64,000 bases of DNA from Promethearchaeota archaeon (GTDB lineage: Archaea > Asgardarchaeota > Lokiarchaeia > Sigyniarchaeales > SOKP01): NCBI GenBank assembly GCA_048937405.1, contig JBHLNF010000001.1, forward strand, positions 544,001-608,000, given 5' to 3'. The translations under genes and the position numbers were made by a program. The first letter of the stretch is position 1. Each line of letters opens with the position of its first letter. Positions 3,410 through 14,681 of this stretch are shown piece by piece. The notes beneath the pieces were generated by a model. The model worked only from the letters and a program-made list of their open reading frames with translations, had not been told where the DNA came from and searched no databases.

Positions 3410-5866
3410 TTATCCAGTAAACTGTGTTTGTACTTGTTCATACAAGTTCTTCTTATAAATAATTTTCACTCCAGACCTAGCAGCAATAAAGATTATTATA
3501 ATAGGGATCAGAAACGTGCCAAGATATGTAAACATTGTAAACCTCGGAAAGATCGCAAATTCATCTTGATATGCATTAATCATATAGTTTGCTACTAGTG
3601 GTATTGATAAAAGTGCAATCATGACTGCAATAAGGGTCCAGATAAGATTTTCAAATAATATTTGCATATATATTTTCTTTTTCTTGACACCAAGGCTTCG
3701 CAATACTCCATATTCATTTTCATGTTCTGTAATCTTCATTAGTGTAGAATTGATCAATATAAATAATTCAACAATTCCTGCAAATCCTACGACAACACCG
3801 ATAAATGGGATTAATAAATCTCCGTATATCTTTATTTGGTTTATTAAATCTGCCATCGGTTGAACTAATGAGATCTTATCAGATATATTATATATATCAT
3901 TGATAAATTCTGATTCATCATTAGGAGTAGAGGAATAGGATATGAAGAGGACATTTATTTTTTCAAGCTGATTTGAAAAGTGCTGAGCAGAATCCAATAA
4001 AACATAACAAGTTGTCATAATTTCTTTGGTAATTCCAACAATTATGAATTGTTTCTTATTTCCTAAAGGGTTATAAATTGTGATGTTTTCTCCAATATCT
4101 AATCCCAATTTACGTGAAATATGGTCTGAAATTATAATTTCGTCATTACTTTGATAAAGTCGACTGGATCCTCCATTCTTATTAATGAAGTTGAAATTAT
4201 GTAATGATTGATTCGATTTAAGCCCCAATAAAATTCCTGTTTGATTGTCAGCTTCATTTTGGGGATTCTCAAATAGCAGAGTTAATTTAAGTGCTGATTC
4301 TGTTTTTTCAATATCTGGTAAACTACTGATATCTTGCATCTCAGATCCTTTATCATCCATTCCGATTGAAAAAGTTACACTCATATCCCATTTTTCTGTT
4401 AATCTTATTGCATTATTGGTCGTATAGTGTACACTATCCCACATTAAAAGCATTGAGCTTACAATTATTATGGAAAATGTGATTCCGATCATTGTTAGAG
4501 CTGTATTACGTGGATTTTTCCTAAAATTCCTCCAAAATAATTTGGTTGATGGGCGCATCCTGGTTTTATCTCTTCTTGCTAATTTAAATCTTTTTTTATG
4601 ATGTTTAAATCCTTCAGATCCTTGTTGCTTATAAACTAAATCAACCATATTTTTCTTCATCATTTTATAAATGGGAGGAATCATTGATAAAATACCAATT
4701 GTTAAACTTAATAAAAAAGCCTCAATAATTAAAGCAAATGAGAATGGAAAAAGGATTGTTGTCCCTAGAATTCCTGTACCCATTTCAATCATCATTTCTT
4801 CGATTAGTACATAAGCAAACACAATACTAATTACAGTTGATATCAGCGTAATTTGTAATAACAGTACAATAAATGATTTGGATATCTTTTTCTTGGAGTA
4901 TCCCAGGCATCCGAGAATGCCTATTTGTTTTTGTTGGGACGTGATAAATTGTCTATAAATCGACATATTCGCTGTTAGTGCCATTATAATCGCAAGAATT
5001 AAAATTATAAAAAATACTTGCGTACTTCCTTCCAAATCACTCATTACATAATTCCATGCATAACTCTTCTCAAACGGAGTGCTTGAGATTAATTGAATAC
5101 CGAGACTACCAAATTTATCTTCTATTTCCCTATTTATATCATCTTGATTAGCATTCGCATCAAATACAACCTGTAATTGGTTAAATTGATATGACACATA
5201 TGGAAAAAATAATAACGGATTAGAAGCATTAACTATTTGGATTAAATCGTTTACATCTACAAATCCAATACCCATTGACCCTTTTATAGGAAATAATACT
5301 TCAGGTGCGGTATTGGTCATCGTAAATTCAATGCTCCAAAAAACTCCTTTGATCGTAAAGTTAGCATTTCCTAATGATTCAATAGTAAGATTCTCTAAAT
5401 TTTTGAGATTTCGTGCCTTAAAAAATTCTTTTGAAAGTAATATCATATGGTAATCAACAGGTTGCAGATTACTTCCAGACTGTAATTCATAATGATATAT
5501 CGGTAAATTTTCTGTGTCAGAAAAAGATGATGACACATTAATTCCGATTAATCGTATTAGATATGTTTGTGGGTCATCCTTTATCTTAATCGGGAATTGA
5601 AATACAAGTCGGGGTACAATATCTTTTACTCCAGGTATTGATCTAATCTCTGATGCGACACTTGAATTAAATCCTGAAGTAATATATTCATAATCTGCCC
5701 GATCTGCATCTCTATAGAGATCTCCAAACAGCGGTTTAATAGAAGAAAAGATTTGAAAGATTCCAACGGCAAAACCAATACATAGAGATAATATAATAAT
5801 TAAAATTATCCTTCGCTTTCCTAACCTTTTTAAATCTTTCCAAGGTTTTTTATTGATTAATTTCAT
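3410..5866 (-). CDS. FtsX/MacB-like ABC transporter permease (two FtsX repeats)
   Basis: IGILGCLGYSKKKI and YGVLRSLGVKKKKI motifs, two large extracellular domains. Confidence 0.85.
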   Translation of the reverse strand: MKLINKKPWKDLKRLGKRRIILIIILSLCIGFAVGIFQIFSSIKPLFGDLYRDADRADYEYITSGFNSSVASEIRSIPGVKDIVPRLVFQFPIKIKDDPQTYLIRLIGINVSSSFSDTENLPIYHYELQSGSNLQPVDYHMILLSKEFFKARNLKNLENLTIESLGNANFTIKGVFWSIEFTMTNTAPEVLFPIKGSMGIGFVDVNDLIQIVNASNPLLFFPYVSYQFNQLQVVFDANANQDDINREIEDKFGSLGIQLISSTPFEKSYAWNYVMSDLEGSTQVFFIILILAIIMALTANMSIYRQFITSQQKQIGILGCLGYSKKKISKSFIVLLLQITLISTVISIVFAYVLIEEMMIEMGTGILGTTILFPFSFALIIEAFLLSLTIGILSMIPPIYKMMKKNMVDLVYKQQGSEGFKHHKKRFKLARRDKTRMRPSTKLFWRNFRKNPRNTALTMIGITFSIIIVSSMLLMWDSVHYTTNNAIRLTEKWDMSVTFSIGMDDKGSEMQDISSLPDIEKTESALKLTLLFENPQNEADNQTGILLGLKSNQSLHNFNFINKNGGSSRLYQSNDEIIISDHISRKLGLDIGENITIYNPLGNKKQFIIVGITKEIMTTCYVLLDSAQHFSNQLEKINVLFISYSSTPNDESEFINDIYNISDKISLVQPMADLINQIKIYGDLLIPFIGVVVGFAGIVELFILINSTLMKITEHENEYGVLRSLGVKKKKIYMQILFENLIWTLIAVMIALLSIPLVANYMINAYQDEFAIFPRFTMFTYLGTFLIPIIIIFIAARSGVKIIYKKNLYEQVQTQFTG

Positions 5867-5894
5867 TTCAAAAGCCTCTCTCTATTTTTGATTA

Positions 5895-6650
5895 TTATTC
5901 TGAATCAGTTATAATTTTACCATTCCGTATATGAATCTCTCTTGATTGTAATTTTTCTGTCAGTAAAGGATTATGGGTAACAACTATAAAAGTTGCATTA
6001 TAATCTGTTGCTATTTTCTTAATTAATTCAAGAATTTGATCACCCGTCTTCTCATCGATATTTCCAGTAGGTTCGTCCATCAGAATGAGGAGATTACCTT
6101 CTGCAAACTCTTCCTTCGCTAAAGCCCGGGCTATAGTGACTCTTTGTTGTTGACCACCACTAAGTTCAGAAGGGAGGTGATCTAATCGATCACTCAACCC
6201 GACAGCTTCGAGATATTTTAAAGCAATTTTTCGAATCTCTTCTTTCTTTCCAAAAGTTTCAATTGCGATTTCTACATTTTCCAATGCCGTCAAGGAAGGT
6301 AATAAATTGAAGAATTGGAAAACAAAACCTACTTTTTTTTTTCTATACTCCGCGAGTTGATTAGGTGATAATTTACTTATGAGCTCATTAAAAACACTTA
6401 TTTCTCCAGATGTGGGTGAATCAATGCCACCCAATAAATTTAACAAGGTTGTTTTACCTGCTCCAGATGGACCTAGCAATGTTATTAATTCTCCTGATTT
6501 GATTTTTAAATTTATATTATCCAATGCAGTAACCTTATTTTCACCCATAGTATAAATTTTACTCACATTATTCAAGATTAGGGATTGTTCTATCATATTA
6601 ATCATTAAATTTACATTATATATGTCCTTTAATTTATATTTATGAAACAA
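5895..6650 (-). CDS. LolD/MacB-type ABC ATP-binding protein (true start probably ATG 6605 or 6596)
   Basis: GPSGAGKTT, FQFFNLL, LSGGQQQRV, DEPTGN. Confidence 0.93.
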   Translation of the reverse strand: MFHKYKLKDIYNVNLMINMIEQSLILNNVSKIYTMGENKVTALDNINLKIKSGELITLLGPSGAGKTTLLNLLGGIDSPTSGEISVFNELISKLSPNQLAEYRKKKVGFVFQFFNLLPSLTALENVEIAIETFGKKEEIRKIALKYLEAVGLSDRLDHLPSELSGGQQQRVTIARALAKEEFAEGNLLILMDEPTGNIDEKTGDQILELIKKIATDYNATFIVVTHNPLLTEKLQSREIHIRNGKIITDSE

Positions 6651-8543: not shown

Positions 8544-9063
8544 AAAACAATCAAATTTAGATTTTAGATGTATGTCTTTTTTCTTTAAAATTCGAGATAT
8601 ATTTCATAATCCTATAAAAAAAATCGAAAATGCTGGTATTAAACAAGGAGAAACAGTATTAGATTATGGATGTGGTCCAGGAAGTTATTCTTTAGCTGCT
8701 GCTGAAAAAATAGGGACAATGGGAAAACTTATCGCAGCAGATATTCATCCATTAGCATTGAAAAGGGTGAGAAAGAAAGCAAAAAAAATGGGTTATAACA
8801 ATATTGAAACAATTCAGACAGATTGTGATACTAAATTGGCTGATGAAAGTATTGATCGAATAATTTGTTTTGATGTACTTCATGGAATCTCTAATACAAA
8901 TAACATTATAAAAGAATTTTATAGAGTTCTAAAGCCAAATTCGATACTCAGTCTTGATGATCATCATTATAATGAAGATCAAATAATTGATTTCATTACT
9001 TCTAAAGGACTCTTTAAATTATCTTATAGTAATGATAAACAATACAATTTTATTAAAATTTAA
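8530..9063 (+). CDS. Class I SAM-dependent methyltransferase
   Basis: VLDYGCGPG motif I; overlaps upstream gene. Confidence 0.9.
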   Translation: MVNNKKQSNLDFRCMSFFFKIRDIFHNPIKKIENAGIKQGETVLDYGCGPGSYSLAAAEKIGTMGKLIAADIHPLALKRVRKKAKKMGYNNIETIQTDCDTKLADESIDRIICFDVLHGISNTNNIIKEFYRVLKPNSILSLDDHHYNEDQIIDFITSKGLFKLSYSNDKQYNFIKI

Positions 9064-9121
9064 AAAATACAAAATTTGAGAAATCCCCTATAATCAAGAT
9101 ATTTACTGTGGGAATGTCAAA

Positions 9122-9682
9122 TCATTTTTTTTCTATTTTTCTATAATTTAAAACAGTTCCTTCTTCAATCCCGCTCCAATGAAACATCGGACGTTTAAAT
9201 TGCTCAACTAATTCAAAACCCATTTCTTTTATTAGTTTTTTGACTTTATTTAATTGGATTCCATAAGATCCTATATGAGTAGCAAAATAAGATAGAATAC
9301 CATAATTTATTTTTAAAATCCTATATATTTCGTTCAATAAATTAACTCGGTCATCCTTATCAATTAAATGATAAACATCATACATTAATACAACATCAAT
9401 AGAATTAGAATTCAAAGGAATCGATATCTCTTTCGAAGTTTTTATTATTTCAATATTAGAAATATTTTGATTTTTAATTTTATCAGATAATTCCTCTAAA
9501 ATATCTTCATCGTAATCAAGAGCATAAATTTTACCTTTATCTCCAACTATTTTTGAAGCAATTACAGAATATACACCTGAGCCACATCCAAAATCTAATA
9601 GATGTTGTCCACTTTTTATACCATAATCTCTAAGTATACTATCTCCCTTCAAATTTAGCCATTCTTCCATATGTAATTCCAC
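9122..9682 (-). CDS. Class I SAM-dependent methyltransferase
   Basis: LLDFGCGSG motif I, IYALD motif II. Confidence 0.9.
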   Translation of the reverse strand: MELHMEEWLNLKGDSILRDYGIKSGQHLLDFGCGSGVYSVIASKIVGDKGKIYALDYDEDILEELSDKIKNQNISNIEIIKTSKEISIPLNSNSIDVVLMYDVYHLIDKDDRVNLLNEIYRILKINYGILSYFATHIGSYGIQLNKVKKLIKEMGFELVEQFKRPMFHWSGIEEGTVLNYRKIEKK

Positions 9683-9793
9683 TTTTTCTATTTAATAAAA
9701 AAAAGTTTTTGTAAATTTCTAAATAAAAAAAAATTGTGTAAAATACACTAAAAATGCTTATGAGTTTTAAGATTAAAATTTTTCTTGTTTTCA

Positions 9794-10339
9794 CTAATAA
9801 TCAAGAGAAAAGGTTTGCTTAACCCATTCCTCAATATCTTTTTTTGAATTAGATTGAGGTTGTGCTCCTTTATATAGATCTTTTTTTCTTTGTTCTTCCA
9901 TCATTTTAGAAAGATCCCTTAATGAGATGATTTTTCCATTCCTAATCTCTATTTCAAGAACTGTCTTAAAAGCCATTGGTCTCTGAAATCCCATATGCAC
10001 ATACATCGATTGTATAAAATCTTTTGCAAGAAGGATACTCCCAGTAAAGTTTGTTTGAAGATTTAAATTTATATAATGATATTTAAATAGAGAATTCCCC
10101 TGTTGAGGTTCAATATCATTGATTTTTGGAGGATTATCAACATTTACCTGTAATTCATCAAGGATTAATAAACTTTTTGTAAATACATATTTCATAACAT
10201 AACCACGCCAACAAGCAGTGCAGCTAGAGTATGGTGATATACCTAAATCCTCAGGTTTAGTTAACCCATGACCTTTCAAACCAACTAATGAAAAAACTTC
10301 TCCATTTAATATGAATTCATCAGGAATTTGTGCTGTCAT
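9794..10339 (-). CDS. Conserved hypothetical protein
   Basis: MTAQIPD, CTACWRGY, YVHMGF motifs; 10 nt downstream of the profilin-TrmB gene. Confidence 0.7.
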   Translation of the reverse strand: MTAQIPDEFILNGEVFSLVGLKGHGLTKPEDLGISPYSSCTACWRGYVMKYVFTKSLLILDELQVNVDNPPKINDIEPQQGNSLFKYHYINLNLQTNFTGSILLAKDFIQSMYVHMGFQRPMAFKTVLEIEIRNGKIISLRDLSKMMEEQRKKDLYKGAQPQSNSKKDIEEWVKQTFSLDY

Positions 10340-10349
10340 TATGAAAACC

Positions 10350-11588
10350 TCACAGTTTTAAGATAATACTCAATAATATTGGAAAATGTTCTTCAGATCC
10401 CCATACGACATAAATCTTATCCTCTAGGGGAATTGCTACATGTCTGGCAGCTACGATCCAATCAGTGCCAACATTATTTCCCGTTTCAGTCCCTTCTTTA
10501 AATTTGAAATACATAGTCATTCCCAAATAGTCTTGGATTTTTGTGTCCTCGATTCTAATATCCTCAAGATCAGGAATTGTGTATTCTTTGACATCGAGGT
10601 CAGGTTGTATAGGTTCTCTCATTTTTTCAGATGAAAGTTGTAAGGCAGCTTTAATAATAACTTCTTCCTTCACTTTTTTGTTATATTCAAAAATAATTAA
10701 ACCACAATCCTTTTCCTCACCCGTTACTCCAAGAGTGTTAAAATCAAAAGATTTTTCGCTATACAATTGAAAATCTTTTTTAATTTCTGTCATATCCATC
10801 CAACCATTCTCAAGTGTTTCCCCCATTATATAGCGAAAACTCTTTAAAATCTTTAACTCCTCTTCTTTTTGCTGAATTCGTTCATCGAATATATCATTTA
10901 ATGGTCTAGCAATATATTCTTGTGCACTCCGAGGCATCAACGGCAATTTCAATATCCAACCCTTACTTATCAAACGATCAATTATTCGATATATTGTCGT
11001 TCTTTTAATAGAGAGATCATCATTCAACTCACCAACTTTAGCTCCATTTTTACCTCTTGTTAATAAAGCCAAATAAACTTTTGCTTCTTCAATGCTTAAT
11101 CCAAATTTTAACAATCCAAGCTCTTGTAAATTATTTGTATCGTCAAGGAGTATTCTGGGAGTCGCCCATTTTAATTCTTCTACTTTACCTAAAGGAGTAT
11201 CGAAGTCCATATAAGGTTTCTTTGAACTTAACTTGCTTAAAGTTCGAGAAGCTTCCATCATTCCAAGTCGCTTTAATCCATTCGGAGCGACTTTACATAT
11301 AATCATCCTTTCTTCATCTTTAAATCCTAAAATTCCACCTTTCTCATTTGGTTCTATCCCAACCAATCTTTCAGGAGTAATTTGAATGATAACATATTTA
11401 ATACCCGAGATCATAAGAGACGTATGCTTCTTTGACCTCCAAACTGAAATAATCTCATTAATATCACTACTAATATCCCAATTATCTGTTGAATATTCTA
11501 ACTCTTTTTCTCCTTTTATTATTGCTGCAGCAATGGTTTTTGCTTCAGATTGTATTAATTCATTAAGAGCCTGTATTATTTTTTCCAT
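10350..11588 (-). CDS. Profilin-like domain fused to TrmB-type winged-helix DNA-binding domain plus unknown C-terminal domain
   Basis: N-term AIIKG...YSTDNWDISSD...SLMISGIKYVIIQ.TPERLVG...KGGILG resembles Loki profilins; middle LLKFGLSIEEAKVYLALL...IKRTTIYRIIDRLISKGWI is a TrmB HTH. Confidence 0.75.
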   Translation of the reverse strand: MEKIIQALNELIQSEAKTIAAAIIKGEKELEYSTDNWDISSDINEIISVWRSKKHTSLMISGIKYVIIQITPERLVGIEPNEKGGILGFKDEERMIICKVAPNGLKRLGMMEASRTLSKLSSKKPYMDFDTPLGKVEELKWATPRILLDDTNNLQELGLLKFGLSIEEAKVYLALLTRGKNGAKVGELNDDLSIKRTTIYRIIDRLISKGWILKLPLMPRSAQEYIARPLNDIFDERIQQKEEELKILKSFRYIMGETLENGWMDMTEIKKDFQLYSEKSFDFNTLGVTGEEKDCGLIIFEYNKKVKEEVIIKAALQLSSEKMREPIQPDLDVKEYTIPDLEDIRIEDTKIQDYLGMTMYFKFKEGTETGNNVGTDWIVAARHVAIPLEDKIYVVWGSEEHFPILLSIILKL

Positions 11589-11638
11589 ACTTTAATACCC
11601 TCTCTATTATCTTTTTCAATTTTATAAAAAAAAATTAT

Positions 11639-11836
11639 TTATTTTTCTCCAAATTTCCTTTTTATTTCATCTAATACCTTTTTGTAATACATATTTTCTT
11701 TAGATTCTTGAATTTCCGTGAAATATTCCGGCATTATTAAATTCTTGGATTTTTGTTTTAGATCTTTTTCCGATATAATAATTCCTTCATCCAGTACTAT
11801 GCAAGCAATTCCATCCATTATTCTTATTCTTACCAT
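11639..11836 (-). CDS. Small hypothetical protein (65 aa) between actin and the profilin-TrmB gene
   Basis: ORF with purine-rich GAAGGG upstream, co-oriented in the cluster. Confidence 0.6.
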   Translation of the reverse strand: MVRIRIMDGIACIVLDEGIIISEKDLKQKSKNLIMPEYFTEIQESKENMYYKKVLDEIKRKFGEK

Positions 11837-11872
11837 TATTGTCCCTTCTAATTTAATACTGATAATTCCTAA

Positions 11873-13018
11873 TTAAAAACATCGATGGATAACTTGAGGA
11901 CCTAATTCCTTGTAATCTCGTCTAGTAATCCACATCCTATAAAAAGTCTTTAAAGAACTTAAAATAGATCCGCCAATCCACACCGAATACATTCGTTCAG
12001 GAGGAGCTATTATTTTGACATCAATTGATTCTGGAATTTGTTCTTTGATTTCTCGGGTTAATCTCTCTTTAATACCGGGAAACATTGTAGAACCACCTGA
12101 AAGAACAATATTACTATAAAGATCTCTTCGTAAATCTACATCACACTCAGATATTGCGCCTATTATAACATCATCTAAGGGAGCTAATTCTTTTCCTACA
12201 ACAGAAGGATTAAATAAACATTCCGGAGCTAAAAACCTTTCAAGTCCAATTGTAATAGTTTCACCATCAGGAAGCATAAAATTCTTTGCCATCCCAGCTA
12301 CTTTATTGGAAAGAATAATTTCCTTTTCTGGATCAATAGCAACATAGCATAATTTTTCTTTAATATCTCTTACAATCTCTTTCTCGGCTGAAGTATAAAA
12401 TGAATATCCATTTTGCCTTAATAACCTCTGCAAATATGTTGTAACATCCCTTCCAGCTAGATCAATTCGCTGTATCGCATGACTTAATGCAAATCCCTCA
12501 AATATGGGTACTATATGTGCAACTCCATCTCCGATATCTACAACACATCCCGTCGTTCGACCAGAAGCATAAAGTGATAAGACTGCTTGTGTTGCGATAT
12601 AAAGAGCTGGGACATTGAATGTTTCGAACATTATTTCTGCCATTTTTTCTCTATTTGATCTGGGATTCAATGGAGCTTCTGTTAATAGTACAGGAAATTC
12701 TGATGGATCAATTCTTAGATCTGTATAGAATGTATAATGATATATTCTTTCCATTGCTGGCCAATCTTCAACAACTCCATGTTCGATAGGAAATTGTAGA
12801 TTCATTATCCCTTTTAATTCCATCGCTTCTTCTCCAATATACCATTCTCGACTGTAATCTTTTACATCAGGCATAATGTTACCATATTTTGGTTTTCCAA
12901 TAACAGTTGGAAAAACCGAACGTGGCTGATCTTCACCTCCAAAACCATTTTTTGAGATTCCTGTCCCATTATCTATAACAATAGCTCTATTATTTCTAAA
13001 GTCCCCGTTGACTGAAAT
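11873..13018 (-). CDS. Asgard actin homologue (~381 aa, probable ATT start)
   Basis: IVIDNGTGISKNGFGGEDQPRSVFPTVIG lies upstream of the track ATG; LLTEAPLNP, QAVLSLYASGRTTG, LSGGSTMFPGI, YSVWIGGSIL, IHRCF. Confidence 0.95.
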   Translation of the reverse strand: MSVNGDFRNNRAIVIDNGTGISKNGFGGEDQPRSVFPTVIGKPKYGNIMPDVKDYSREWYIGEEAMELKGIMNLQFPIEHGVVEDWPAMERIYHYTFYTDLRIDPSEFPVLLTEAPLNPRSNREKMAEIMFETFNVPALYIATQAVLSLYASGRTTGCVVDIGDGVAHIVPIFEGFALSHAIQRIDLAGRDVTTYLQRLLRQNGYSFYTSAEKEIVRDIKEKLCYVAIDPEKEIILSNKVAGMAKNFMLPDGETITIGLERFLAPECLFNPSVVGKELAPLDDVIIGAISECDVDLRRDLYSNIVLSGGSTMFPGIKERLTREIKEQIPESIDVKIIAPPERMYSVWIGGSILSSLKTFYRMWITRRDYKELGPQVIHRCF

Positions 13019-13082
13019 TTTAAAACCACCTCTTTTTTTTATATTGAGTTATAGATTAAATAAAAATGATAATATTTAAATG

Positions 13083-13102
13083 TTGTCACGATATGGTGAC
13101 AA
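13083..13102. promoter_or_regulatory. Inverted repeat TTGTCAC-N6-GTGACAA next to the putative TATA box of the actin gene
   Basis: Perfect 7-bp arms; minus-strand TTTAAATA at 13073-13080 directly adjacent. Confidence 0.55.
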
Positions 13103-13177
13103 TTATGTTATGAATTGTAAACAACAAAAAAAAAAATTAATTAACTCAAAATTTCTTTAAATAGATAGAAAAGTATT

Positions 13178-13612
13178 ATGACAAGTTTAACTAGTACTGA
13201 AATAAGTTGTCCTCACTGTAAAAACTCATTTCGGATTATCTGGGAAGCATCAATAAATACGTGGTTAAATCCAGAATTAATTCAAAAAATTCTTGATGAT
13301 AGATATTATTATGAATGTCCAAAATGTACAAAACAAATACATTTTGTGACAAAGATTTTAATAAATTGTCCTAAAGGGATGTTTTGGATATCAAATGATG
13401 AAGAAATAGAAATAAAAAAAAAAATCTTGAAAGATTATGGTGTTATTAACGAGGATGGAAAGATTTTAACTCCAATAAGGGGAGTTGATCTTCCTGCAGA
13501 TGATCACCCCGGTTTGAACTCCAACTTTGATAAGATAATTAGGAACTTTAAAGATGAGTTGTTAACTAACAATAATAATGATTCTTTAGAAAAAAAGAAT
13601 AAGAGTAGATAA
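13178..13612 (+). CDS. CpXC-type zinc-ribbon protein
   Basis: CPHC...WEASINT...CPKC. Confidence 0.75.
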   Translation: MTSLTSTEISCPHCKNSFRIIWEASINTWLNPELIQKILDDRYYYECPKCTKQIHFVTKILINCPKGMFWISNDEEIEIKKKILKDYGVINEDGKILTPIRGVDLPADDHPGLNSNFDKIIRNFKDELLTNNNNDSLEKKNKSR

Positions 13613-13616
13613 AAGA

Positions 13617-14681
13617 TTATTTTTTAAGCAAGTTTATCAACTTTTTTACTATTAGATCCCCCATTTCTTTTGTAGTTAGTGTTTTAAAAGCACTATTCTC
13701 AATATCTATGGTTCTTCCTTCGTTAAGGGCTTCCTCCACAGATTTCTCAATTAAAAAACCTATTTCTGGAGAATTGAATGATTCTTGCAACATTAGCTTT
13801 ACACTTAGAATAGTGCCTATTGGATTAGCTATATTTTTTCCAGCAATATCAGGAGCCGAACCATGTATTGGTTCATACATAGATACATGTCCGGGATTTA
13901 TGTTTCCACTGGCGGCCATTCCTAAACTACCAATCAGAAAAGCACCTTCATCACTAGTAATATCACCAAACATATTGCCTGTAACTACTGTTTCGTAAGA
14001 ATAAGGAGCACGAATTAACCATTGACAAAAAGCATCAATATAAACATCCTCTTTCTCTAAATCGGGATAATCTTCACCAATTTTATGAAAGATATTACGC
14101 CAAAATTGACTTGCTTTTATAACATTTGCTTTATCAACAGAAGTAATTTTTTTATGACCATTCTTCTTTGCAAATTCACAAGCATATCGCATAATTCGTT
14201 CACACCCTTTTTTTGTATAAAACATTACACTTTCTGCGCTCTCATCTGATATTTCTCCGATTCCTTTATATATTCCCTCTGTATTTTCTCTAATAATAGT
14301 GAAATCAATACCTTTTCCTATAAATTCATCTCTAAGTGGACATCTATCACGTAGAGGATAATATAACTTGATTGGCCTCATATTCACGTATAGGTCTAAA
14401 TCTTGCCTTATCTTTAAGATTGCAGATTCAGCAATTCCGGGGGGTAAATCAGGAAGTCCAATAGCACCAAATAATAAAGCATCAGAATTTTTAATAATTT
14501 CAAATGTCTTTTTTGGAAGGCTTTCACCACAATCTTTCCAAACTTTACCTCCAGCTGGAGCGTTTATAAATTCAAAATCAAAATCACTATATTCAGAAAT
14601 AACTTTTAGAATCTTTATCCCTTCTTCTACTACTTCTAATCCACATCCATCACCATGAGTGACTGCAATTTCTTTTTTCAT
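13617..14681 (-). CDS. leuB: 3-isopropylmalate dehydrogenase
   Basis: GDGCGLEV, RENTEG, VDKANV, NMFGDI, EPIHGSAPDIAGK. Confidence 0.93.
   Translation of the reverse strand: MKKEIAVTHGDGCGLEVVEEGIKILKVISEYSDFDFEFINAPAGGKVWKDCGESLPKKTFEIIKNSDALLFGAIGLPDLPPGIAESAILKIRQDLDLYVNMRPIKLYYPLRDRCPLRDEFIGKGIDFTIIRENTEGIYKGIGEISDESAESVMFYTKKGCERIMRYACEFAKKNGHKKITSVDKANVIKASQFWRNIFHKIGEDYPDLEKEDVYIDAFCQWLIRAPYSYETVVTGNMFGDITSDEGAFLIGSLGMAASGNINPGHVSMYEPIHGSAPDIAGKNIANPIGTILSVKLMLQESFNSPEIGFLIEKSVEEALNEGRTIDIENSAFKTLTTKEMGDLIVKKLINLLKK

Follow-up and report, generated by a model that had tools for sequence, protein, structure and literature searches.

A gene downstream of a second lokiactin in the genome of a Promethearchaeota archaeon (assembly GCA_048937405.1) encodes a 412-aa protein in which a profilin domain is joined to a TrmB-type DNA-binding regulator, and a palindrome unique in the genome lies at the promoter of this lokiactin gene. 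The same architecture, gene order, and promoter palindrome recur in related genomes. We tentatively propose, as a reading that falls short of an even chance, that the profilin domain serves as the sensor of a one-component transcription factor, which would autoregulate the actin-2 operon in an actin-responsive manner. The locus lies in a window of 64,000 nucleotides (contig JBHLNF010000001.1, positions 544,001 to 608,000), and the coordinates given here are those of the window.

Locus layout and the actin-2 gene

Open reading frames on the minus strand encode actin, a 65-aa protein, the 412-aa fusion protein, and a 181-aa protein, separated by gaps of 36, 50, and 10 nt, respectively, with the following features:

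13026-13032, minus strand: Shine-Dalgarno-like GAGGTGG, 7 nt upstream of the ATT start codon
11873-13018, minus strand: actin-2, second lokiactin paralog, 381 aa, ATT start (Pfam Actin, E = 6e-113)
11639-11836, minus strand: 65-aa protein, accessory, present in 10 of 21 loci
11619-11634, minus strand: run of nine T followed by TATA-like TTTATAAAAT, between the 65-aa and fusion genes (read from the sequence)
10350-11588, minus strand: fusion gene, 412 aa, profilin head and TrmB-type regulator
9794-10339, minus strand: 181-aa protein, accessory, beginning 10 nt past the fusion gene, present in 7 of 21 loci

The original prediction had described a co-oriented cluster of four genes, which stands as far as the ORFs are concerned but needs correction at the actin start, and the two small genes are not part of the core. 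The automatic ORF for actin begins at an ATG at position 12874 and yields a 333-aa protein that lacks the phosphate-1 loop. Upstream of this ATG the frame stays open and actin-like to position 13048 and contains no ATG, GTG, or TTG, and we therefore place the start at ATT 13018-13016, which gives 381 aa and is preceded by GAGGTGG. The ATT is kept in 17 orthologous loci, in three of which a stop codon lies immediately upstream, and the Shine-Dalgarno-like sequence is kept together with it in the orthologous loci of the same genus. Actin-2 is 85% identical to the main lokiactin of this genome (contig C25), with the 62 differences concentrated in the N-terminus and the D-loop; its orthologs are 80-96% identical, and the main lokiactin is nearly invariant throughout the family. 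These comparisons indicate that actin-2 is a faster-evolving second lokiactin, distinct from the main one.

As the flanking genes vary among loci, we regard actin-2 and the fusion gene as the core of the cassette and the 65-aa and 181-aa genes as accessory. The 65-aa protein had no significant Pfam match, and its Atlas matches were uninformative, falling in clusters without names; the 181-aa protein belongs to no Pfam family, and its Atlas look-alikes are likewise unnamed and mostly bacterial. The T-run and TTTATAAAAT ahead of the fusion gene are possibly a partial terminator and an internal promoter. Rfam searches detected no RNA element in positions 9000-14000 of the window (E up to 0.1) and no match in five orthologous loci with long leaders.

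Profilin domain of the fusion protein

The fusion protein can be divided into four parts, as follows:

11229-11588, minus strand: residues 1-120, profilin domain (sequence matches and predicted fold)
11139-11228, minus strand: residues 121-150, linker, disordered by prediction, carrying the near-invariant motifs SSKKPYMD and KWATP
10821-11138, minus strand: residues 151-256, TrmB-type winged helix-turn-helix and long amphipathic helix (PF01978)
10353-10820, minus strand: residues 257-412, disordered loop (257-294) and conserved alpha/beta C-terminal domain (295-412) in the AF2 model

The original prediction had recognised profilin hallmarks in roughly the first 120 residues and a TrmB winged helix behind them, and both identifications are borne out by homology searches and by predicted structure. 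Searching residues 1-140 against PDB sequences with phmmer, we recovered the Odin profilin 5zza (E = 2.5e-9), Loki profilin-2 5zzb (E = 2.5e-8), Loki profilin-1 5yed (E = 1.7e-7), and the Thor profilin 7pbh (E = 1.2e-5). The match to Pfam Profilin (PF00235) reaches 14.9 bits (E = 0.03), below the gathering cut-off of 25 bits, and the databases consequently label the fusion protein only as "HTH domain-containing". The remaining profilin-like genes of the same genome score about 24 bits with PF00235.

In the profilin fold, the helices at both termini pack on a central sheet. The AF2 model of residues 1-120 has a pLDDT of about 80-87. Its best Foldseek matches are 5zza, 5zzb, and 5yed (E about 1e-9, TM 0.74-0.79), and structure comparison by VIA placed it closest to Loki profilin-2 5zzb (Z = 17.3, rmsd 2.5 Å over 123 residues), with yeast profilin at Z = 16.9, eukaryotic profilins in general at Z = 14-17, and the best Roadblock domain at Z = 12.4. 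DSSP assigns to the model a short helix (residues 40-51) followed by strands at 57-60, 63-70, and 74-78, which correspond to the profilin-specific three-strand insert. This insert replaces half of the central helix, constitutes the actin-binding element, and separates profilin from Roadblock and longin domains (PMC10933270). Sequence matches and modelled fold both indicate that the N-terminal domain is a profilin and not a PAS, GAF, or Roadblock domain, and within the fusion protein it is the least conserved portion.

Linker, winged helix, and C-terminal domain

In the linker, residues 134-150 have a pLDDT below 50 in the AF2 model, and across the linker and its motifs K123, P125, Y126, L133, G134, K135, and P144 are at least 90% conserved in homologs. 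The PYMD motif is common to the fusion protein and a 211-aa "long profilin" paralog.

Residues 159-213, in the winged helix, score 41.9 bits with PF01978 (cut-off 25.6 bits, E = 8.8e-11), and the recognition-helix residues K195, R196, I199, and Y200 are invariant. The VIA-wide best match of this part is TrmBL2 5bpd (Z = 12.5, 22% identity), with TrmB 3qph at Z = 9.8. A long amphipathic helix predicted at residues 230-255 aligns with that of TrmBL2 and presumably serves dimerisation, as the amphipathic coiled-coil helix behind the winged helix does in the TrmB family. Whole-chain alignments with TrmBL2 span residues 150-404 (VIA Z = 12.9; Foldseek E = 2e-4), and the fold of residues 295-412 is assigned solely through these alignments, as VIA-wide matches covered model residues 1-114 only. 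A profile search of the PDB with the C-terminal half returned only winged helices of the MarR/SarX type (E about 1e-3), and neither TrmB nor TrmBL2, which leaves Y200 as no more than a candidate counterpart of Tyr50 of TrmB. Beyond the HTH, Pfam detected no sugar-binding effector domain of the TrmB/TrmBL1 type. Overall, the matches and the model indicate that residues 150-412 are a winged-helix regulator of the TrmB/TrmBL2 type. The full-length AF2 model has a pTM of 0.34 and thus provides no confident inter-domain geometry in which an allosteric route would be visible.

Distribution and synteny

The full-length profilin-TrmB architecture occurs in 164 database proteins. Within one Lokiarchaeial family, 45 of 134 genomes carry the gene, whereas it is absent from all 265 other genomes of the phylum. 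Such recurrence, judged from the sequences, indicates a single conserved gene, far beyond chance. Labels of Thor, Hermod, Hod, and Odin on some homologs would imply a wider range, which we rejected because in a species-level set all full-length copies belong to one family. Closed genomes searched in the neighbouring family encode short or long profilins only and no fusion.

The synteny survey, which reached fusion identities as low as 37%, bears out the linkage to actin that the original prediction required in other Asgard genomes. In all 30 loci compared and in 14 of 15 further ones (44/45), the fusion gene follows immediately after actin-2 in the same orientation, and in about 45 of the roughly 49 genomes with a second lokiactin the fusion adjoins that gene. 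The cassette belongs to the chromosome, where it is found on contigs of 0.3-1.3 Mb, and some genomes carry two divergent cassettes. Its distribution within the family is patchy, with decayed remnants, and the system is dispensable.

The nearest relatives of the profilin module form a clade of "long profilins" of 205-256 aa (40-48% identity). Close relatives of the module also occur in fusions with Ras-type GTPases, SIR2, and an LCM methyltransferase; by analogy with Roadblock and longin domains, which partner with GTPases, the module may bind partners besides actin. Two further TrmB-like relatives, of about 290 aa, stand alone, and neither adjoins actin.

A candidate operator at the actin-2 promoter

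Upstream of actin-2 we identified two promoter features:

13083-13102, minus strand: candidate operator, perfect inverted repeat TTGTCAC-N6-GTGACAA (read from the sequence), with its TATA-proximal half-site at the BRE position
13073-13080, minus strand: TATA box TTTAAATA of the actin-2 promoter, 62 nt upstream of the start codon

The TATA box reads TTTAAATA in 19 of 21 loci and TTTATATA in the remaining two. The palindrome is found 2-3 nt upstream of TTTAAATA (2 nt here) in all 21 orthologous loci and in most of 15 further loci. It has no second match in the window or, even with one mismatch allowed, in the 4.47-Mb genome, and each of five other genomes from four genera contains exactly one perfect palindrome, always at the actin-2 promoter. 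Promoters carry two to three half-sites, with a maximum of three within 60 nt among 36 loci, and such small numbers suggest an operator-like arrangement. The GTCAC/GTGAC half-sites resemble the TGM motif TATCAC-N5-GTGATA of TrmBL1/Tgr (PMC4158304), and from these sequence features we infer that the fusion protein binds the palindrome. TrmB-family regulators activate from sites upstream of BRE/TATA and repress from sites downstream (PMC4158304); here the palindrome and the BRE position overlap, and the placement therefore does not reveal the sign of control.

Predicted contact with actin

Complex prediction for the profilin domain with actin, a check that the original prediction had called for, came out in favour of contact, with an ipSAE of 0.78, the highest-scoring of three controls (an unrelated protein) reaching 0.52, although complexes of Loki and Odin profilins with rabbit actin have been solved and a passing score may reflect likeness or recall rather than prove binding here. 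Of 80 solved complexes, 58 attain the mark applied to this score, as do 2 of 110 mismatched pairs. Individual runs share at least 93% of contacts, with a partner pLDDT of at least 84. The predicted interface brings actin residues 120, 173-180, 292-296, and 358-381 against profilin residues 66-83 and 105-128; residues of the three-strand insert make up much of it, and linker residues 123 and 125-128 also contact actin. We take this to be the canonical barbed-end site of eukaryotic profilin-actin structures, and the profilin domain is accordingly predicted to sit in the barbed-end groove of actin. Actin-2 and the main lokiactin share all but two of the 26 predicted contact residues of actin, and both exchanges are conservative. 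The predicted interface of the profilin domain is not more conserved than the rest (mean entropy 2.03 vs. 1.61), a comparison confounded by buried core residues.

A proposed actin-responsive circuit and its alternatives

In the circuit that we infer, a winged-helix dimer of the TrmB/TrmBL2 type would bind the unique palindrome over the BRE position of the actin-2 promoter, and since the presumed operon behind this promoter also encodes the fusion protein, its binding would amount to autoregulation. Each profilin domain, together with the PYMD extension, would bind an actin monomer in the barbed-end groove. Since actin-2 and the main lokiactin hardly differ in this groove, what the protein senses would be the monomer pool as a whole. 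Occupancy by actin would then alter occupancy of the operator. Our guess is homeostatic negative feedback, in which abundant monomer would close the promoter, and the conserved weak ATT start may hold the output of actin-2 low, nearer to the level of the regulator. Counting against the circuit are the low conservation of the profilin domain, a predicted interface no better conserved than the remainder, the 0.52 that an unrelated control reached with actin, the other fusions of the module, an inter-domain geometry of low confidence, a palindrome position from which no sign of control follows, and the patchy, partly decayed distribution of the system.

It is conceivable, if rather unlikely, that the protein is a local regulator only, which would control its own operon through the palindrome and whose profilin-like head would be a dimerisation module or a binder of a GTPase, another protein, or a ligand, such that the connection to actin resides in the target gene alone. 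The operator and synteny evidence fits such a role, as do the sub-threshold Pfam Profilin score, the lack of preferential conservation at the predicted interface, the occurrence of the same module in GTPase, SIR2, and methyltransferase fusions, and a core fold that profilin has in common with the GTPase-pairing Roadblock and longin domains (PMC10933270). However, the proteins to which the head is homologous are specifically Asgard profilins that bind actin, the head retains the three-strand insert used for actin binding, and its predicted complex outscores the controls at the canonical site. It would, moreover, be a striking coincidence if, in 44 of 45 loci, a head of profilin origin had been joined to precisely the protein that regulates an actin gene.

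We consider it improbable that the fusion protein is a ParR-like adaptor, which on the palindrome would capture or feed the barbed end of actin-2 filaments and couple the DNA locus to the filament, in a chromosomal, ParMRC-like form of positioning or segregation with autoregulation as a by-product, as for ParR. The order of the genes and the site upstream of the actin gene suit this role, and the profilin domain is predicted to use the same barbed-end groove that ParR peptides occupy on ParM. Further points in its favour are the two divergent cassettes of some genomes, the distinct D-loop of actin-2, which might keep its filaments apart from lokiactin, and the nature of the closest structural relative, TrmBL2, a DNA-coating chromatin protein (PMC4158304). 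Yet the promoters contain only two to three half-sites and never a repeat array, the fixed register of 2-3 nt between the site and the TATA box points to transcription, the cassette is chromosomal, and the weak ATT start argues against bulk production of filaments; in this genome, the contig with the cassette has no Orc1/Cdc6 gene, and the three Cdc6-type genes lie on other contigs. Least probable of all, and in our view very much so, is a dedicated profilin that would act as an assembly or nucleotide-exchange factor specific to actin-2, with the DNA-binding part tethering or sequestering it on the nucleoid and no sequence-specific regulation. Conservation of the profilin domain and the PYMD extension is compatible with this function, and TrmBL2-like proteins can bind DNA non-specifically (PMC4158304), but the invariant residues of the recognition helix speak against it, and a unique palindrome at a fixed promoter position is hard to explain without specific binding.

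Comparison with known systems

Solved structures of stand-alone Asgard profilins (Akil & Robinson 2018, cited in PMC12993045 and PMC9433394) include 5yed/5yee, 5zzb, 5zza, 7pbh, and 6yrr. The fusion head is related in sequence to these proteins (Loki-1 and -2, Odin, Thor, and Heimdall) and shares their fold (Z = 16-17, rmsd 2.5 Å, 29-31% identity) and predicted actin site. They are single-domain proteins of about 120-150 aa, however, whereas the fusion protein adds the PYMD/KWATP extension and a DNA-binding regulator of about 260 residues, and its head is nearer to the "long profilin" clade than to profilin-1 and -2. With the TrmB family, the fusion protein has in common a winged helix of PF01978, then a long helix predicted to be amphipathic, and a C-terminal domain, as well as a palindromic site beside BRE/TATA; autoregulation is known in this family, and TrmBL2 is without the sugar-binding part (PMC4158304). 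It differs in that the DNA-binding domain is internal, behind a head predicted to bind protein, in that the presumed signal is a protein (actin) instead of a sugar, and in that there is one target site per genome and not a regulon.

Two further systems resemble the proposed circuit or the locus. In animals, G-actin controls actin genes through MRTF-SRF, in which MRTF binds actin via RPEL motifs and works by nuclear import and export together with a separate DNA-binding partner, SRF. The proposed logic is alike, in that a regulator would bind the monomer and the output of an actin gene would track the pool, but the two are not homologous, and here actin sensing and DNA binding would be united in a single polypeptide of a cell that has no nucleus; no RPEL family was found among the Pfam matches up to E = 1. 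In the parC-parM-parR systems of type II plasmid partition, the adaptor autoregulates and binds the barbed-end-like groove of the filament, and the order of DNA site, actin-fold ATPase gene, and gene for a DNA-binding protein is similar to the order here. The present locus, in contrast, is chromosomal, encodes a eukaryote-like lokiactin, and has a single palindrome in place of an iteron array.

Among known prokaryotes, Asgard archaea are the closest relatives of eukaryotes, and their actin, profilin, and gelsolin are seen as forerunners of the eukaryotic cytoskeleton. To our knowledge, profilins have so far been described only as small stand-alone actin regulators. In keeping with the novelty suspected in the original prediction, we found no description of a profilin-HTH fusion in the full-text literature searched, which leaves aside an article on Asgard profilin diversity (BioEssays 2023, PubMed 36461738), and nothing in the same literature on the genes beside Asgard actin paralogs. 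Standard annotation overlooks the profilin domain. The system is limited to one Lokiarchaeial family and is patchy there. The "long profilin" module with its PYMD motif recurs in fusions to GTPases, a sirtuin, and a methyltransferase, which may point to a broader range of Asgard effectors directed at actin. A ParR-like role, if true, would mean that an Asgard DNA locus is physically coupled to an actin filament through parts of eukaryotic type. If the actin-responsive circuit is true, it would be the first candidate for direct feedback from cytoskeleton to gene in a prokaryote, a task for which animals use the unrelated parts of MRTF-SRF.

Organization of the actin-2 gene cluster

The original prediction described closely spaced, co-oriented genes for actin and for proteins of 65, 412, and 181 aa, and all four open reading frames (ORFs) are present on the minus strand of the window, which has a G+C content of ~30%. 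We refer to the actin gene, a second lokiactin paralog, as actin-2, and to the 412-aa protein as the fusion.

Features of the actin-2 cluster (ORFs from the ORF listing; start region from sequence and ortholog conservation; promoter elements read from the sequence)
9794-10339, minus strand: 181-aa ORF
10350-11588, minus strand: 412-aa ORF (fusion)
11639-11836, minus strand: 65-aa ORF
ATG at 12874, minus strand: actin ORF, 333 aa as listed
13016-13032, minus strand: Shine-Dalgarno-like GAGGTGG and ATT start, 7 nt apart
13080-13073, coding strand: TATA box TTTAAATA, 2 nt after the palindrome
13102-13083, coding strand: palindrome TTGTCAC-N6-GTGACAA, upstream of actin-2

The actin reading frame is open and clearly actin-like upstream of the ATG at 12874. 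Because the phosphate-1 loop is encoded before this ATG, and no ATG, GTG, or TTG occurs from the upstream stop to that loop, ATT at 13018-13016 is the only plausible start, giving a protein of 381 aa. The ATT and the Shine-Dalgarno-like box are kept in 17 orthologous loci (among L004-L021), and in three of these a stop codon immediately precedes the ATT. In L026, a more distant ortholog, the aligned codon is TTG; in six others (L022-L025, L027, and L028) the start is an ATG lying a few codons downstream. Conservation of such a weak start codon suggests that translation of actin-2 is deliberately low. The gap separating the 65-aa gene from that of the fusion contains a T9 run followed by a TATA-like TTTATAAAAT (11619-11634, minus strand), which may act as a partial terminator and internal promoter through which the regulator would be expressed independently of actin-2. 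Divergent from actin-2, across a common 159-nt intergenic region, is a gene for a CpXC zinc-ribbon protein (13178-13612, plus strand; PF14353, E 1.6e-10), a neighbor conserved in close relatives only (6/21 loci).

A profilin domain joined to a TrmB-type regulator

The fusion had originally been read as a profilin head followed by a TrmB winged helix, and sequence and structure searches bear out both parts. The winged helix is matched above the Pfam cut-off at residues 159-213 (E 8.8e-11), and the Pfam Profilin match is sub-threshold (E 0.03). Compared with PDB sequences, residues 1-140 matched Odin profilin (E 2.5e-9), Loki profilin-2 (2.5e-8), Loki profilin-1 (1.7e-7), and Thor profilin (1.2e-5). 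An AF2 model built with 30 homologs as input (mean pLDDT 72) gave the following layout.

Predicted domains of the fusion (AF2 model)
Residues 1-120: profilin-type domain, with a three-strand insert at 57-78
Residues 121-150: disordered linker
Residues 150-227: winged helix
Residues 230-255: long helix
Residues 256-293: disordered loop
Residues 295-412: alpha/beta domain

Foldseek searches with this model placed Asgard profilins on top (E ~1e-9, TM 0.74-0.79) and eukaryotic profilins next, and VIA likewise ranked Loki profilin-2 (Z 17.3) and yeast profilin (Z 16.9) above the best Roadblock (Z 12.4) for the head. TrmBL2 was matched by residues 150-404 in VIA (Z 12.9), was again the best Foldseek match when residues 148-412 were modelled separately (E 2e-4), and was best VIA-wide for the winged helix taken together with the long helix (Z 12.5, 22% identity; TrmB Z 9.8). 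No sugar-binding domain was detected in the fusion. Stand-alone TrmB-like proteins of ~290 aa match the rear part, and in the two cases checked they do not lie beside actin.

Distribution and synteny of the cassette

We found 164 full-length homologs of the fusion, each about 400-430 aa, whose database names, where present, are "HTH domain-containing" only. In a species-level genome set, 45 of 134 genomes from the family to which the window belongs, spanning four genera, have the full-length fusion, as against none of the phylum's 265 other genomes. The linkage to actin envisaged in the original prediction recurs consistently: the fusion gene lies directly downstream of actin-2 on the same strand in 30/30 loci, and the same order holds in 14 of 15 further loci, with fusion identity as low as 37% and a contig edge as the sole exception. 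The flanks of the cassette vary among genomes, with the 65-aa gene present in 10/21 loci and the 181-aa gene in 7/21; thus, its core is actin-2 plus the fusion. In the literature searched, descriptions of Asgard profilins are of stand-alone proteins only; we found there neither a profilin-TrmB fusion nor any mention of the neighbors of Asgard actin paralogs.

Decayed fragments of the fusion in three genomes point to ongoing loss of the cassette in some lineages. Fragments of its C-terminal part and, in one locus, a truncated actin-2 were seen across G223:C4:86025-86372, G199:C1:80511-80819, G247:C132:20995-21321 (genome, contig, positions), and locus L075; internal stops interrupt two of the fragments. 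One genome (G239, contigs C47 and C16) carries two divergent cassettes, the second with a variant distal half-site, and at two other loci (L063 and L072) an additional TrmB-like paralog (28-29% identity) that lacks the profilin head is encoded slightly downstream of the fusion.

A candidate operator in the actin-2 promoter

The palindrome upstream of actin-2 is unique in the 4.47-Mb own genome, one mismatch and alternative spacings included, and its perfect form occurs exactly once in each of five other genomes, always in the actin-2 promoter. The proximal half-site lies 2-3 nt from the TATA box in 21/21 loci from four genera, an arrangement unchanged across leaders of 62 to 200 nt and also seen in most of 15 further loci. 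Each actin-2 promoter has two or three half-sites; an array was never seen at these promoters. In sequence, the half-sites are similar to TATCAC-N5-GTGATA, the TrmBL1/Tgr motif (PMC4158304). Within the TrmB family, activation goes with sites upstream of BRE/TATA and repression with downstream ones (PMC4158304); since the site here overlaps the BRE position, control could be of either sign. In many orthologs (L040, L043, L047, and L050-L057) the distance from the conserved operator and TATA box to the start codon is 170-200 nt, versus 62 nt in the window, which implies long leaders, with some stretches in common; five loci with such leaders gave no Rfam match.

Two lokiactins and the predicted head-actin complex

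The own genome has five actin-family genes. Actin-2 (11873-13018) is 85% identical to the main lokiactin on contig C25 (C25:219072-220199), and the 62 differences are concentrated at the N-terminus and around the D-loop (residues 39-59, e.g., G46E, P50T, and K53E); its polymerization may differ. The C25-type lokiactin is near-invariant across the family; actin-2 ranges from 80 to 96% identity and is essentially restricted to genomes with the fusion. A genome without the fusion (G224) has two lokiactin-type genes on the same strand 1.6 kb apart (C48:2635-3762 and 5381-6490), an actin duplication of another kind.

We predicted the complex of fusion residues 1-128 with actin-2, each supplied as an alignment, together with three controls, using a score mark attained by 58/80 solved complexes and 2/110 mismatched pairs. 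The pair passed, scoring 0.78 versus 0.52 for the best control, an unrelated protein against actin, although, because structures of rabbit actin bound to Loki and to Odin profilin have been solved, the pass may reflect likeness to these rather than binding by this copy. Complex runs agreed in at least 93% of contacts, with partner pLDDT of at least 84. The predicted interface comprises actin residues 120, 173-180, 292-296, and 358-381 and, on the head, residues 66-83 and 105-128, with the PYMD motif among them; this is the canonical barbed-end site of profilin-actin structures. Actin-2 and the main lokiactin differ at only two of the 26 predicted contact residues, leaving the predicted profilin site almost identical, and therefore the head could read either actin. 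Two observations count against binding: predicted interface residues of the head are no more conserved than the remainder, a comparison confounded by core residues, and the unrelated control reached 0.52.

The closest relatives of the head form a clade of 205-256-aa "long profilins" (40-48% identity, PYMD motif in common) that is present in nearly all genomes of the family and is nearer to the head than are canonical short profilins. The own-genome member (211 aa; L003:1474-2109, contig C29) comprises a profilin domain ~40% identical to the head, the PYMD motif, a linker of low complexity, and a helical tail. In other metagenomic or Asgard proteins (P0158, P0177, P0263, P0163, and P0160) the head module is also fused to Ras-family GTPases, a SIR2 domain, and an LCM-type methyltransferase; such fusions might form a family of effectors directed at actin, or might instead indicate that the module has other partners. 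A genome of the same class encodes a 421-aa profilin-LCM protein (L077:643-1908, minus strand).

Candidate mechanism

Several explanations could account for this cassette. The regulator might control the operon in the same way while its head pairs with another partner, which we consider unlikely. The fusion might instead be a ParR-like adaptor joining DNA to an actin filament, with which the gene order is consistent; however, the site is small and keeps register with the TATA box, its location is chromosomal, and actin-2 has a weak ATT start, making this quite improbable. A dedicated profilin tethered to DNA seems the most remote of these.

The best-supported explanation has three steps: the actin-2 operon would be autoregulated through its private palindrome, the head would bind actin, and actin binding would be coupled to DNA binding. 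Autoregulation through the palindrome is likely. We lean towards binding of actin by the head, and if both hold, coupling between them is fairly probable. The full circuit, in which an archaeal actin operon would be controlled by a regulator that reads actin itself, is accordingly put forward as a tentative explanation, somewhat less likely than not as a whole.
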